From a virus, in the IMG/VR virus record IMGVR_UViG_3300035099_000181, positions 37,071-101,070 of that record: a stretch of DNA of 64,000 nt; one strand, written 5' to 3'. Below the pieces are notes generated by a model. The model saw only the letters and a list, made by a program, of their open reading frames with translations. It did no database searches and was not told the DNA's origin. Within the stretch, counting starts at the first letter, position 1. Each line of letters begins with the position of its first letter. Shown here one piece after another: positions 24,417-63,385 of the stretch. Made by a program: the position numbers and the translations under genes.

Positions 24417-24965
24417 ATGTCAAGAAAGAAGATGCACGAGGAGCCGAAAAGGGTTTACGCATGGAGGGACGGTAGTGGGAAGCGGTTTGGGAAGTTTGAT
24501 GCCCAACCTGCGGGCGAGGAAGTGGAGAAGCTTCAGAAGTTACATGGGCATGAACTTGAGCCTGCGGACGTTGTGGAGGCGGCAGCAGATGAGAAGAATG
24601 TTCTGCATGACTTATTCGAGTGGGACAATCTGAAGGCCGGACACGAATGGAGGCTGCAGCAGGCGCGTTTCCTTTTGCAGTCCCTCAAGGTGACGATCAC
24701 TCATTATGATGGGAAGACGATCACGTTGGATCGGGCGACGGCGGTGCTTCCCGCCAAGAATGGTTCAGGCGGGAAAAAATATGTCATGATGGAACGGGCG
24801 ATGCGGGATGCGGACAGCAGGAACTATCTGCTCCGGGTGGCGTTGCTTGAGGCCATCGCGTTCAGGAACAAGTACAAGGAGCTGTCGGAACTGACGAAGA
24901 TCTTTGTCGAGATTGACCTGGCATACAAGGAGCATGCCGGGGAACTGAAGCAGTGCGTCATGTGA
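24417..24965 (+). CDS. Hypothetical protein associated with the pentamer-repeat/RAMP locus
   Basis: GGAGGG RBS; LEPADVVEAAADEKNVLHDLFEWDNLKAGHEWRLQQARFLL; ends 4 nt before array 1. Confidence 0.75.
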   Translation: MSRKKMHEEPKRVYAWRDGSGKRFGKFDAQPAGEEVEKLQKLHGHELEPADVVEAAADEKNVLHDLFEWDNLKAGHEWRLQQARFLLQSLKVTITHYDGKTITLDRATAVLPAKNGSGGKKYVMMERAMRDADSRNYLLRVALLEAIAFRNKYKELSELTKIFVEIDLAYKEHAGELKQCVM

Positions 24966-24969
24966 TTCT

Positions 24970-25637
24970 GGCATGGCAGAGCGGAGTAGGGATAGGTTGA
25001 GTAAAGCAAAGCAAGGCAGGCGGAGCGAAGCAGAGCATAGCAAAGCCAAACAAAGCAAGGCAGGCGAAGCGGAGCACAGCGGAGCAAAGCAGAGCCGAGC
25101 AAAGCAAAGCAAGGCAGGCTAAGCGAAGCAGAGCCCAGCACAGCCCAGCAAAGCCCAGCAGAGCCTAGCAAAGCAAGGCAGGCGGAGCATAGCCTAGCTT
25201 AGCCGAGCAGAGCCAAGCACAGCTAAATAAAGCAATGCAGGCAGAGCTTAGCTTAGCGTAGCCCAGCCAAGCACAGCCAAGCAAAGCAAGGCAGGCTAAG
25301 CTTAGCATAGCTTAGCAAAGCTAAGCAAAGCAAGGCAGGCCAAGCGGAGCCGAGCACAGCATAGCTTAGCAAAGCCAAGCAAAGCAAGGCAGGCCAAGCG
25401 GAGCCGAGCACAGCAGAGCTGAGCTGAGCCAAGCAAAGCAAGGCAGGCAAAGCATAGCGCAGCGCAGCTTAGCAGAGCGTAGCGAAACAAAGCAAAGCAG
25501 GCCAAGCGTAGCATAGCAAAGCAAAGCGTAGCTGAGCCAAGCTGAGCGAAGCAAAGCAAGGCAGGCTAAGCAAAGCGTAGCTCAGCCAAGCGTAGCCTAG
25601 CAAAGCTCAGCTAAGCAAAGCAAGCAAAGCAAGGCAG
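24970..25637 (+). repeat. Array 1 of AGC-NN pentamer units (12 units incl. a degenerate first one); candidate guide ncRNA array
   Basis: Units GGC-NN-(AGC-NN)n-AGC-AA-AGC-AA-GGCA; constant trinucleotide alternates with a variable dinucleotide. Confidence 0.9.
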
Positions 25638-25703
25638 AAGGCGATTGGCAGTCGCCTATCGCCAATGGGTTTCATTTAACAGGAATCAAGAAGGAGAAAT
25701 GTC

Positions 25704-26423
25704 ATGGCAAGGAAGGCAGTGTCAGAAGCTAACGTGGCAATTACTATTAGTTCCCCCAAGTTTGACATCTTCAAATGTTCGATAATTGGGAGTTCTCCAT
25801 TCGTGTCGAATAAGTTTTCCGAGAAGGCACGGATTATGATGGAGGAGGCCCAGATGCAGGGGCAGGCAGCCAAGACGACGAGGAAGAGGGAACCGAAGGA
25901 TTTCGAGTCTCTTTACCTCGGGTCTATGCATCTTGCGGATTCCGGTGATTGGTATGGCATTCCGTGCTCGGCCTTTAGGAGCGCCATGATCAAGGCATGT
26001 AGCATTGTTGGTGTGCATATGACAAAGGCTAAGATGTGCGTCTTTGTTGAGCCTGATGGGTTTAGCAGGGAAGGAACGGCGTTGGTCAGGATAACGAAGG
26101 GGGAACCTAAGATGTTCAAGGCGGCGGTAATATTGGCGTCTGGAGTTCCCGATATTTCCGCGCGTGGAATGTGGATGCCTGGATGGGAAGCGGAGCTGCG
26201 GATACGGTACGACTCGGATATCTTCTCTCCGGAGACCGTGGCTAACCTTCTGATGAGGGCTGGATTGCAGGTGGGAGTTGGTGCCGGTCGCCATGCTTCC
26301 GAAAGGTCGTCCGGGCAAGGGTGGGGGGAGTTCATGTTGAAGACGGATTCTCAGGATATGGGCAGGGAAGAGGGACTTGAGGCAAACCCTGTTCCAAAAA
26401 GGAGATTGAGACAGGCAGCATAG
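25704..26423 (+). CDS. Stand-alone RAMP/Cas7-like protein
   Basis: AAGGAG RBS; IIGSSPF (first RRM strand), YGIPCSAFRSAMIKAC (IPxSxxKGxxR-like), C-terminal Gly-rich loop AGLQVGVGAGR...GQGWGEF. Confidence 0.7.
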   Translation: MARKAVSEANVAITISSPKFDIFKCSIIGSSPFVSNKFSEKARIMMEEAQMQGQAAKTTRKREPKDFESLYLGSMHLADSGDWYGIPCSAFRSAMIKACSIVGVHMTKAKMCVFVEPDGFSREGTALVRITKGEPKMFKAAVILASGVPDISARGMWMPGWEAELRIRYDSDIFSPETVANLLMRAGLQVGVGAGRHASERSSGQGWGEFMLKTDSQDMGREEGLEANPVPKRRLRQAA

Positions 26424-26453
26424 GGACGCGGCGATGGCATATTCGTTTTGATT

Positions 26454-27013
26454 AAGGCAGGGTTGGCTGAGCACAGTCCGGCTCAGCTAATCCGAACAAA
26501 GCAAAGCAGGCCAAGCCCAGCATAGCCCAGCAAAGCTAAGCCGAGCTAAGCTGAGCCCAGCAAAGCAAGGCAGGCGAAGCAGAGCATAGCATAGCCAAGC
26601 AAAGCAAAGCAAAGCCCAGCTAAACAAAGCAAGGCAGGCGAAGCATAGCGTAGCAAAGCAAAGCAAAGCCCAGCTAAACAAAGCAAGGCAGGCGAAGCGT
26701 AGCTCAGCAAAGCATAGTGCAGCACAGCGGAGCCAAGCATAGTAAAGCAAAGCAAGGCAGGCTAAGCTAAGCATAGCACAGCAGAGCGTAGCAAGGAAAA
26801 GCAAGGCAGGCGTAGCTGAGCCCAGCGGAGCATAGCGGAGCAAAGCGGAGCAGAGCAAGGCAGGCGGAGCAGAGCGGAGCAAAGCGCAGCAGAGCAAAGC
26901 CCAGCATAGCGGAGCAGAGCTAAACAAAGCAAGGCAGGCGAAGCGTAGCTCAGCAAAGCATAGTGCAGCACAGCGGAGCCAAGCATAGTAAAGCAAAGCA
27001 AGGCAGGCGAAGT
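26454..27013 (+). repeat. Array 2 of AGC-NN pentamer units (9 units incl. a degenerate first one); candidate guide ncRNA array
   Basis: Same grammar and AAGCAAGGCAGGC handle as array 1; the unit starting at 26691 is repeated exactly at 26937. Confidence 0.9.
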
Positions 27014-27026
27014 CGGGAGCAAAGAG

Positions 27027-27345
27027 ATCAAGACATATTCTTACATTCTTATAGATAGTCATTGTATCGGTTATGCCTCGGCTTTTACCACCGGTAGCTT
27101 GACTCATGCTAGAGAGAATATTGGTGTCTTGTTTGGGTTCTTGAAGCAGATTCTGAATGTGGCAGAAAGGTTTGAGACTAATCGCTTCATGTTCTGTTGG
27201 GATTCAGGCAAGTCCTTACGGAAGAAGGTCTTTGCTGACTACAAGCGCAGGAAACTTATGGCCGATGAAGAGAAGGAAAAGTTCAGCTCTATCCATCGCC
27301 AGTTTCACATGATCCGCGTTTATTGAGGCATTTAAGTTGCTATGA
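27027..27345 (+). pseudogene. Truncated 5'-3' exonuclease / flap endonuclease (PolI N-terminal-like)
   Basis: YILIDSHCIGY...GVLFGFLKQIL...MFCWDSGKSLRKKVFADYKRR; no ATG start, stops after ~100 codons; possible C-terminal remnant AFIEAFKLL* in another frame overlapping the next ATG. Confidence 0.7.
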
Positions 27346-27887
27346 GCAATGGTGCTAAAAAGGGTCCCCCGTTCGAGAGGGAACTATGCAAGCTGTTCTC
27401 GCAATGGTGGGATGGTCGGGATGATGTGTTTTGGCGGACTTCCGGTTCAGGTGCCCGCGCGACTTCCCGCAGCAGGAAAGGCAAGAAGACAAAGTATGAA
27501 TATGGGGACATGACATTCACGGACCCCGTAGGGAAGCCTCTTGTAGATCTGATCTTGTGGGAGTTCAAGCGGGGCTATTCCAAGAGTATCGACATGCTGG
27601 CCTTGCTTGATGGAAGAAGTTCTTTGCTCGGTAAGTGGATAGCCAAGGCAGAGGAGGACAGAAGGGAATCGGACAGGAAATATGTCTGTCTCGTGCTTCA
27701 AAGGGATCGCAAGGAGAAGGTTCTGGCTATCCATTCGGCGCTTTTGGGCTGGTTGGAAGGGCAAATAGGCGAGTTCAAGGGACAGTCGATCAGGGTCTCG
27801 TCATTTCCGCTGGAGTTCATTCTGCTGAAGGACTTTTTAACCTGGTGTAACAGGCAGGCAGTGGAGGAGATATGGAATTCACTATAG
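27342..27887 (+). CDS. PD-(D/E)xK nuclease, Holliday junction resolvase-like
   Basis: KGPPFERELCK, RTSGSG, GD, WEFKRG. Confidence 0.7.
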   Translation: MSNGAKKGPPFERELCKLFSQWWDGRDDVFWRTSGSGARATSRSRKGKKTKYEYGDMTFTDPVGKPLVDLILWEFKRGYSKSIDMLALLDGRSSLLGKWIAKAEEDRRESDRKYVCLVLQRDRKEKVLAIHSALLGWLEGQIGEFKGQSIRVSSFPLEFILLKDFLTWCNRQAVEEIWNSL

Positions 27888-62441: not shown

Positions 62442-62990
62442 AAGTAGGCTACGAAAAACGTATTGTACTATATTTTTCCGTCTGTACTATGTTTTTCCGT
62501 ACGGCAGTGAAAAAAGTAGGCTACGAAAAACGTATTGTACTATGTTTTTCCGTACGGCGGTGAAAAAGTAGGCTACGAAAAACGTACTGTACTTTATCAG
62601 TTACGGGAAAGGAATAACAAGCTCGGAGGGTTTATGGAGGATAGGATGAAGGTGCTTGAGGAGAAGGCTGCCTTGTTGTCGGGCTCCGCGTTCAAGGTCT
62701 TGTTTCTCCTGTGCGTCGGGGCAGAGGGCAAGGCTGAATGCGTGCTGACGTATGCTCAGTTGGCTGAGAAAACCGGTCTGAAAGCTTCCCACATGCGGGA
62801 TCACGTACTGGAGCTGGAGGATAAGGGCCTGACGGAGGCGACTTACATAGCAAGAAAGGGCAGGGGAGGCGGGGGAGTTCAGCACACCTTTCGCTTGCTC
62901 ATCTGAAAGTAGGCTACGAAAAACGTATTGTACTATGTTTTTCCGTACGGCGGTGAAAAAGTAGGCTACGAAAAACGTACTGTACTATGT
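62442..62990. repeat. Five copies of AAGTAGGCTACGAAAAACGTA(T/C)TGTACT, three upstream and two downstream of a wHTH gene
   Basis: Copies near 62442, 62514, 62566, 62907, 62959; a ~78-bp block is repeated on both sides of the gene. Confidence 0.9.
62634..62906 (+). CDS. Small winged-HTH DNA-binding protein
   Basis: GGAGGG RBS; SAFKVLFLL...TYAQLAEKTGLKASHMRDHVLELEDKGL. Confidence 0.75.
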   Translation: MEDRMKVLEEKAALLSGSAFKVLFLLCVGAEGKAECVLTYAQLAEKTGLKASHMRDHVLELEDKGLTEATYIARKGRGGGGVQHTFRLLI

Positions 62991-63049
62991 GAAGCAACAT
63001 TCATAGCTAAACGAGATGGCAAAGGGGGCACAGCTCATGTTTTCCGGGT

Positions 63050-63199
63050 CTTGTTCTAGGAAAAGGCGTAACTTGTTCTAGGAAAAGGCGTAACTTGATA
63101 CGGGAAAAGCCAGAACTTGATACGGGAAAAGCCAGAACTTGATACGGGAAAAGCCAGAACTTGATACGGGAAAAGCCAGAACTTGTTCCAGGAAAAGGC
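63050..63199. repeat. 22-bp tandem repeat, ~7 copies in two variants
   Basis: CTTGTTCTAGGAAAAGGCGTAA x2, CTTGATACGGGAAAAGCCAGAA x4, then a partial copy. Confidence 0.92.
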
Positions 63200-63385
63200 T
63201 GTCAGTTAGATTTTCGGGACTCTCCCCCATCCCCGCAACACATATAGAAAAGTCACTGTACCTAGATAAGTTATTGATAACGTTAAGAAAAGACTAGCCA
63301 TGAAAAGGAGGAGAGAGACTACCACAATGATGAATGAGACAGCGAGGATCTCGGGGATGATGCAGATGGATGACGAGGTATTCAG

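Follow-up and report, generated by a model that had tools for sequence, protein, structure and literature searches.

A phage locus pairing a single-RRM RAMP protein with AGC-NN pentamer arrays is probably a staggered-array VIPR system

[quoted passage not shown] In the experimentally characterised type II system of Escherichia phage SUSP1 (PDB 36pp; bioRxiv 10.64898/2026.04.26.720927), the vipr gene belongs to a two-gene locus, has vap1 as its accessory gene and is flanked by same-strand arrays of GGT-NN repeats, which encode four guides (vrRNAs) of about 100 nt with a structured pseudoknot tail. The first constant base of the repeat, G1, is read by residues H17 and D177 of SUSP1 Vipr, and D177 hydrogen-bonds G1. 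The available text of bioRxiv 10.64898/2026.04.26.720920 widens the family to non-GGY repeats of the form YNNNG (Methods) and to staggered arrays (legend of fig. S18), and describes the loci as minimal and viral. In the staggered kind, as that text presents it, a lone Vipr RAMP and one accessory gene in a phage accompany head-to-tail guides without spacers, the end of one guide marking the start of the next, and each pentamer has three conserved and two variable bases. Non-canonical VIPR clusters, in which a Vipr-like fold sits beside non-GGY period-5 arrays, are described in section 2.3 of bioRxiv 10.64898/2026.10.21.760802; the accessible part of that text names GAC, CAC, WGT and TGH, not AGC, and describes no link between a protein residue and a repeat base.

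The locus studied here lies in a 64-kb stretch of DNA (hereafter the window) from the 101,070 bp genome of an uncultured phage, a virus record with terminal repeats. Its features span positions 24417-27013 of the window and all lie on the + strand, in the order accessory gene, array 1, 239-aa protein, array 2:

24417..24965, + strand: vap-like accessory gene, 182 aa (open reading frame; a homologue stands beside vipr in 56 of 83 related loci)
24975..25637, + strand: vrRNA array 1, NN-AGC pentamers in one degenerate leading, 10 clean and one terminal unit
25638..25668, + strand: hairpin immediately 3' of array 1 (RNA folding)
25704..26423, + strand: vipr gene, 239 aa, single-RRM RAMP (open reading frame, predicted fold, homology)
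26456..27008, + strand: vrRNA array 2, with the pentamer and punctuation rules of array 1, in one degenerate leading and eight clean units

A preliminary description of the window had proposed a compact cassette of two open reading frames and two arrays, and each of these was found in place. The cassette is surrounded by replication and recombination genes, namely a RecA/UvsX-like gene, a clamp, a clamp loader and a FEN fragment. That description had also reported that cas1, cas3, cas10 and CRISPR arrays were lacking. For Cas1 and for CRISPR-type repeat-spacer arrays other than the pentamer arrays, this holds across the whole 101-kb genome. The locus consists of vipr and one accessory gene in a viral genome with neither Cas1 nor a CRISPR array, and does not qualify as class 1 CRISPR-Cas. 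A scan for promoter and terminator consensus sequences gave nothing above shuffled expectation.

The 239-aa protein has the fold that had been claimed for it. Its AlphaFold2 (AF2) model is confident (pLDDT 90.7), a Foldseek search of the PDB with the product of 25704-26423 returned a best E value of 3e-6, with every match listed being a CRISPR effector complex, and the best solved-structure matches in a VIA comparison were Cmr4 (Z 11.8) and Csm3 (Z 11.7). The protein is a minimal single-RRM RAMP with a thumb and a glycine-rich loop. These class 1 Cas7 proteins share its RRM core, thumb and glycine-rich loop, and polymerise on a guide with periodic base flipping, as is predicted for the window protein. 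The class 1 systems differ from the window, which has no CRISPR array, Cas1, second RAMP or large subunit, and the periods differ as well: 6 nt with one base sequestered in Cas7, against 5 nt with, by prediction, three bases sequestered in the window.

The protein is also homologous in sequence to the characterised Vipr. When the family profile was compared with PDB sequences, the top match was 36pp_D, 'SUSP1 Vipr protein' (E 0.013), and direct alignment by hhalign gave E 3.7e-5 over just the C-terminal 54 columns. SUSP1 Vipr in turn matches Gordonia UmaThurman gp39 over its full length (E 2e-12), and the window protein matches Gordonia ODay gp19 (E 6e-24), so that the full-length link between the window protein and SUSP1 Vipr, as judged from sequence comparison, is transitive, through the Gordonia phage proteins. 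In the alignment, R154 corresponds to the thumb arginine R138 of SUSP1 and A194 to D177, and the G-loop motif GVGAGR...GWG is conserved.

The arrays are sharply confined. Pairs of AGC trinucleotides 5 nt apart, AGC(+5)AGC, number 165 in the 64-kb window, and 150 of them lie within the 1.25 kb of the arrays; a generic period-5 detector found no further array in the window or in the remaining 37 kb of the genome. Cutting the arrays at GCAGGC yielded 18 clean units, with lengths of 44, 49, 54, 59, 64, 69 or 74 nt, all 5n+4, which together with the terminal unit and the two degenerate leading units gives about 21. Clean units start at 25022-25503 in array 1, where the terminal unit occupies 25567-25636, and at 26512-26940 in array 2, in which the units at 26694-26762 and 26940-27008 are identical. 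The units close with AA-AGC-AA-GGC-A-GGC. Of the 176 pentamers that make up the unit bodies, 165 have AGC as their fixed trinucleotide and not one has GGC, which is confined to the punctuation; GGC-A-GGC ends 16 of the 18 clean units. This splitting bears out the earlier account of AGC-NN arrays built of roughly 21 units with a GGCA step, as well as its statement that all 16 dinucleotides are present at NN.

We observed little RNA structure in the units. Single units of array 1 showed no significant fold (z -2.0 to +0.7), and no tail was seen beyond AA-AGC-AA-GGC-A. The region 25630-25703, with the hairpin that follows array 1, folds at -20 kcal/mol (z -2.9). An Rfam search found no ribozyme or known RNA; one match, to IMES-2, scored 18.5 bits where the cut-off is 54.7 and left its stems mostly unpaired, and was dismissed.

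The 182-aa accessory protein matches phrog_15946, whose function is unknown, and no Pfam family; a word-index search found nothing but the protein itself. Its AF2 model (pLDDT 93.2) has a C-terminal helical hairpin, and fold comparison gave weak winged-helix-like matches with Z up to 6.7. Because these fall below the noise level quoted for the tool, we use the label 'winged-helix-like' as a lead only. The accessory profile showed no similarity to SUSP1 vap1 (E 0.17).

The association of gene and arrays extends across the family. Runs of period-5 repeats were present in 75 of the 83 related viral loci (fetched stretches), almost all with the constant trinucleotide on the strand of the gene, which answers the proposal of the preliminary description that homologues be checked for adjacent pentamer arrays. 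Cyanophage Cy-LDV1 and Gordonia phage ODay are among the loci with such arrays. Most related loci carry GGC-NN repeats, divided by GGCA into 5n+4 units as in the window, and the spacings between GGCA marks in these loci equal 4 modulo 5 in 290 of 381 cases on the gene strand, compared with 3 of 14 on the opposite strand. An AGC scaffold is shared with the relatives L073, L072, L067 and L065, and is not unique to this phage.

VIPR is not new as a system, and the window belongs to this known family. The earlier suggestion of a VIPR-type resemblance is now supported by the RAMP fold, the homology to SUSP1 Vipr, the arrays of the relatives and the published descriptions. Adjacent same-strand pentamers with a conserved trinucleotide and a hypervariable dinucleotide (GGY/NN, or the related NNNGG, YNNNG and NNNNG) are present, and in the register of bioRxiv 10.64898/2026.04.26.720920 NN-AGC reads as C-NN-AG, which fits YNNNG. 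The guide bodies do not follow a strict GGY motif, which does not exclude membership, since the VIPR papers accept non-GGY variants. With SUSP1 the locus shares a homologous protein that keeps the thumb arginine and the G-loop, same-strand arrays on both sides of the gene and a two-gene layout. It differs in its repeats (AGC-NN rather than GGT-NN), in its units (44-74 nt without a structured tail, against about 100 nt with a pseudoknot), in the number of guides (about 21 against four), in an accessory protein unrelated to vap1, and in the residue at the G1 contact (Ala rather than Asp). Because there is no vap1 match and no structured 3' tail, the locus is not type II.

Extrapolating from published work on SUSP1 and P. 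fulva, we propose that both arrays would be transcribed from the + strand along with the genes, and that the transcripts would give rise to unstructured guide RNAs, about 21 in number and 44-74 nt long, each bounded by the 4-nt step GGC-A|GGC. By analogy with SUSP1, Vipr protomers would polymerise on each guide, one per pentamer, to form a ribonucleoprotein that sequesters the constant AGC and leaves the variable NN exposed. The exposed dinucleotides would pair with double-stranded DNA, one base being skipped per dinucleotide, (NNx)n, and the filament could then keep a rival mobile element, or some other target, from being transcribed; the 182-aa winged-helix-like partner may assist. That the locus is a phage-encoded VIPR system of the staggered-array kind, working through such guides and filaments, is the reading we favour, with a probability of roughly 0.88. 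It is tempered by a direct link to SUSP1 of 54 columns, by the non-GGY motif, by the negative scan for promoter and terminator consensus sequences, by target searches (below) in which no natural target emerged, and by the staggered architecture itself, which the available text of bioRxiv 10.64898/2026.04.26.720920 presents without experimental validation by sRNA-seq.

The proposed skip rule was carried into target searches. Exact 1-nt-skip (NNx)n patterns of nine guides, with no mismatches allowed, were scanned in viral, metagenome and prokaryote collections. Viral contigs gave no match in five of seven scans, and the other two, with 18-base patterns, produced 2 matches and 1 match; two scans of metagenome contigs gave none; and of two scans of prokaryote genome contigs, one gave zero matches and the other 3, in unrelated taxa. 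No other guides converged on the matched sites and no skip fell at the wobble position of an open frame, and we took these matches to be chance. Searches at skips of 0-3 in the phage's own genome and in 630 kb of related loci found no targets beyond shuffled controls, with no self-target in the phage genome, and 136 guides from related loci showed no cross-targeting.

A rival reading is that the locus is a VIPR relative operating under another rule than SUSP1, its AGC scaffold and Ala-type G-loop going together with a different skip length, with RNA as the target or with a function other than repression. Departures from the solved system in the constant motif and at the G1 contact would agree with this, as would the accessory gene unrelated to vap1 and the lack of targets under the 1-nt skip rule. 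However, the protein retains the thumb arginine (R154, equivalent to R138) and the architecture of the G-loop, the 1-nt rule is reported in the available text of bioRxiv 10.64898/2026.04.26.720920 to give matches for types III and V as well, and skips of 0, 2 and 3 were equally empty in the phage genome and related loci. The negative result is itself weak because it covers exact patterns of nine guides, and we consider a different rule improbable.

Alternatively, the arrays could function as DNA, as iterons or other sites to which a replication or partition protein of the adjoining replication module binds, with the RAMP-like gene a mere neighbour, as their position among replication and recombination genes might suggest. 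But the pairing of gene and arrays recurs across dozens of unrelated phage contexts, almost always with one strand polarity, which DNA-binding sites do not need, and a hypervariable NN between three fixed bases is the opposite of an iteron, making this account very improbable. Least credible of all are slippage microsatellites or coding sequence for long Leu/Ala/Cys-rich - strand open reading frames: such frames do run through the arrays (for example 26487-27107, 206 aa), because GCT-NN seldom yields stop codons, but a 5-nt period with three fixed and two free bases and 4-nt breaks is incompatible with codon constraint, the full set of dinucleotides occurs at NN, and the layout is found again next to homologous genes where other bases are the constant ones.

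Returning to the staggered VIPR interpretation, we found that the identity of one G-loop residue is associated with the first constant base. The G1-contact position is Ala194 in the window protein, Asp (D177) in SUSP1 and Glu in most of the window's clade. In a tally that included 10 Ala-type loci, with 31 further Ala-type homologues standing outside it, 9 of the 10 had 25-89% A at constant position 1, whereas 52 of 54 Glu-type loci had at most 10%. A phylogenetically corrected test of this association was underpowered: the quick tree contained three changes of the residue, and its supported branches gave a single independent pair. With A194, the protein probably reads the first constant base less strictly or with an altered preference. 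A stronger version, that Glu/Asp-to-Ala at the G1 contact is a natural specificity switch from GGY to AGC that leaves this Vipr/vrRNA pair partly orthogonal to GGC-type systems, is a tentative idea that we think unlikely. Satellites and rival phages are reported to hijack VIPR through stand-alone vrRNAs (bioRxiv 10.64898/2026.10.15.759431), so that altering the scaffold could be a way of evading them. If the switch were real, engineers would also gain another programmable scaffold, orthogonal to the first.

The window offers a well-resolved example, with about 21 guides, of the least-tested VIPR architecture, in which GGCA punctuates staggered arrays. Within its clade it further gives a testable link of the first constant base to a single residue of the G-loop, an acidic residue going with G and alanine with A or R. 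Should this link hold, the VIPR scaffold code would be tunable by a single residue, which bears on the private guide systems of competing phages and on orthogonal programmable DNA binders.

The cassette of two ORFs and two pentamer arrays is a genuine VIPR (Viral Interference Programmable Repeat) locus of the staggered-array kind, with guides arranged head to tail on an AGC scaffold; it belongs to a family already known and recently published. Its ORFs and arrays have the order and places proposed in the preliminary description, with a hairpin after array 1:

24417-24965, + strand: accessory ORF, 182 aa, the first element in order
24975-25637, + strand: array 1, NN-AGC pentamers
25638-25668, + strand: hairpin (z -2.9)
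25704-26423, + strand: ORF of 239 aa (vipr)
26456-27008, + strand: array 2, NN-AGC pentamers

The 1.25 kb of the arrays hold 150 of the 165 AGC(+5)AGC pairs in the 64-kb window, and a generic period-5 detector found no other period-5 repeats in the rest of the window or of the 101-kb genome. Cutting at GCAGGC divided the arrays into about 21 units, or putative guides (18 clean, 1 terminal and 2 degenerate leading). All 18 clean units are 44-74 nt long and 5n+4 in length, as had been described, and the conserved handle was likewise recovered: GGC-A-GGC closes 16 of the 18, with AA AA as the final two NN. All 16 dinucleotides are present at NN across both arrays, whose base composition is rich in A (37-38%) and poor in T (6-7%). 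Of the 176 pentamers that make up the unit bodies, 165 have AGC as the constant trinucleotide and none has GGC. GGC is confined to unit boundaries, suggesting that those positions have a separate role, for example in processing or filament nucleation. Units 26694-26762 and 26940-27008 are identical, a single guide present twice, and units 25341-25394 and 25395-25448 agree in the first four NN but diverge after that; it seems that the arrays expand when units are duplicated and then edited. Single units had no significant fold (z -2.0 to +0.7). The hairpin at 25638-25668 is stable and lies directly 3' of the last array 1 unit and 5' of the vipr ribosome-binding site, where it may serve as terminator, attenuator or 3' cap. 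We rejected as genes the - strand ORFs inside both arrays (62-206 aa, Leu/Ala/Cys-rich, for example 26487-27107), which are a by-product, open because GCT-NN seldom yields stop codons.

The 239-aa protein had no Pfam match and matched only phrog_4652, of unknown function; we found 503 homologues, the closest at 56% identity. An AlphaFold model that drew on 120 of the 503 (pLDDT 90.7) supports the RAMP/Cas7-like fold first suggested for this protein. In a Foldseek search of the PDB, CRISPR effector complexes occupied every row among the matches listed (best E 3e-6), including type III Csm and Cmr, type VII and Cas7-11/Craspase. A structure search independent of Foldseek matched Cmr4 (6s6b_I; Z 11.8, 148 residues aligned, rmsd 3.5) and Csm3 (9g9a_D; Z 11.7, 150 residues, rmsd 4.1). 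The best matches in a viral structure library were uncharacterised phage proteins and one annotated RAMP.

Preprints describe VIPR as built from Vipr, a minimal RAMP encoded by phages, together with a single accessory gene (vap) and guide RNAs that consist of GGY/NN pentamers; every NN pairs with target DNA and the following target base is skipped. An alternative repeat, YNNNG, is named in the Methods of one of them (bioRxiv 10.64898/2026.04.26.720920). Read as C-NN-AG, the window repeat fits YNNNG. Another preprint gives 21 clusters of non-canonical VIPR repeats (bioRxiv 10.64898/2026.10.21.760802). The proposed resemblance to VIPR-type systems is supported. Searched against all PDB sequences, the family profile had as its top match 36pp_D, 'SUSP1 Vipr protein' (E 0.013), from an Escherichia phage, and hhalign against SUSP1 Vipr gave E 3.7e-5, limited to the strand-helix-G-loop region. 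Gordonia phage UmaThurman gp39 aligned with SUSP1 Vipr over its full length (E 2e-12), and Gordonia phage ODay gp19 matched the window protein at E 6e-24; in tblastn, ODay scored 1e-16 and UmaThurman 4e-11. The analyses show how the locus is built, the fold and homology of its protein, and the associations of gene with arrays and of residue with repeat base that are described below; by analogy with the SUSP1 and P. fulva work, the window locus would be transcribed and processed into guides that form an RNP, follow the pairing rule and direct repression.

We examined 83 relatives (3 database phages and 80 IMG/VR loci) for neighbouring pentamer arrays and found period-5 runs within the fetched stretch in 75, mostly directly beside the gene and with the constant trinucleotide nearly always on the gene's strand. 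That trinucleotide is GGC in most, AGC in L073, L072 and L067, an AGC/GGC mix in L065, GGT in L032, GTC in L025 and GTT in L034 and L036. GGCA punctuation is common to these variants; of 381 gaps between successive marks on the gene strand, 290 had a length of 4 mod 5, compared with 3 of 14 on the opposite strand, and units are mostly 39-69 nt. The GTC-NN and GTT-NN arrays (L025 4660-4960, L034 4660-4850, also L036) keep the punctuation, and their Vipr proteins have Ile/Lys in helix 1 in place of the family Phe-Arg (window F91-R92). Within this single lineage, residue and base may covary for position 2, in addition to the covariation described below for position 1.

A homologue of the 182-aa ORF adjoins vipr in 56 of 83 loci, usually downstream; it is upstream in the window, L021 and L032. 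Structure matches for its model (pLDDT 93.2) were no more than weak (Z up to 6.7) and of a winged-helix-like kind; a helical hairpin comes after this part. The SUSP1 locus, which is type II, agreed in sequence with its published layout: a gene of 195 aa, a vap1 of 146 aa and GGT-NN repeats. The window accessory ORF has no sequence relationship to vap1, so the window locus does not belong to type II.

Downstream of array 2, a 5'-3' exonuclease N-terminal fragment (27021-27326, +; PF02739 positions 2-94 of 164) is in a frame open out of the array, with no ATG/GTG/TTG ahead of the conserved N-terminus. It ends after 101 codons, followed by a PDDEXK_15 endonuclease gene (27342-27887, +), and represents a remnant or, alternatively, a gene that an insertion has split. 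Near the right genome end, at 62442-63200, a 40-nt element (AAGTAGGCTACGAAAAACGTATTGTACTAT...) occurs five times, ahead of seven tandem repeats of 22 nt (CTTGTTCTAGGAAAAGGC and a variant); these look like promoter or iteron repeats.

Whichever skip length was used, the guides had no self-match in the phage's own genome and none in related loci that exceeded shuffled controls. Nine guides were also searched as exact 1-nt-skip patterns, with no mismatch allowed, and gave zero or few matches, as many as expected by chance, with neither a second guide nearby nor a wobble register. The rivals targeted may simply be unsampled so far, since the nearest Vipr homologue is only 56% identical.

In the SUSP1 structure, H17 and D177 hydrogen-bond G1 of GGY, R138 and W178 hold G2, and D177A abolishes silencing (bioRxiv 10.64898/2026.04.26.720927). 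Alignments place R138 at the invariant R154 of the window protein, and D177 at Ala194, a position that is Glu in most of the clade and Ala in 32 of the best 120 of 503 homologues. For every distinct locus, we tallied which base its arrays carry at constant position 1. The A fractions of the 10 Ala-type loci were 0.00, 0.25, 0.33, 0.39, 0.47, 0.50, 0.82, 0.84, 0.88 and 0.89, the highest being the window; the 54 Glu-type loci had a median of 0.00, and only two of them, in which pentamers were few, exceeded 0.10. Without correction, the difference had Mann-Whitney p 3e-6 and Fisher p 2e-8. A quick, poorly resolved tree required three changes of the AGC label, and in it the window was not sister to the L067/L072/L073 clade. 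The link between Ala and A1 is suggestive rather than established, because of that poor resolution and because a paired sign test had too few independent contrasts. We infer that a carboxylate at the D177 position recognises G1 by its Watson-Crick face. Without the carboxylate, A would be permitted at this base position, and in some lineages its absence goes with near-complete replacement of G1 by A.
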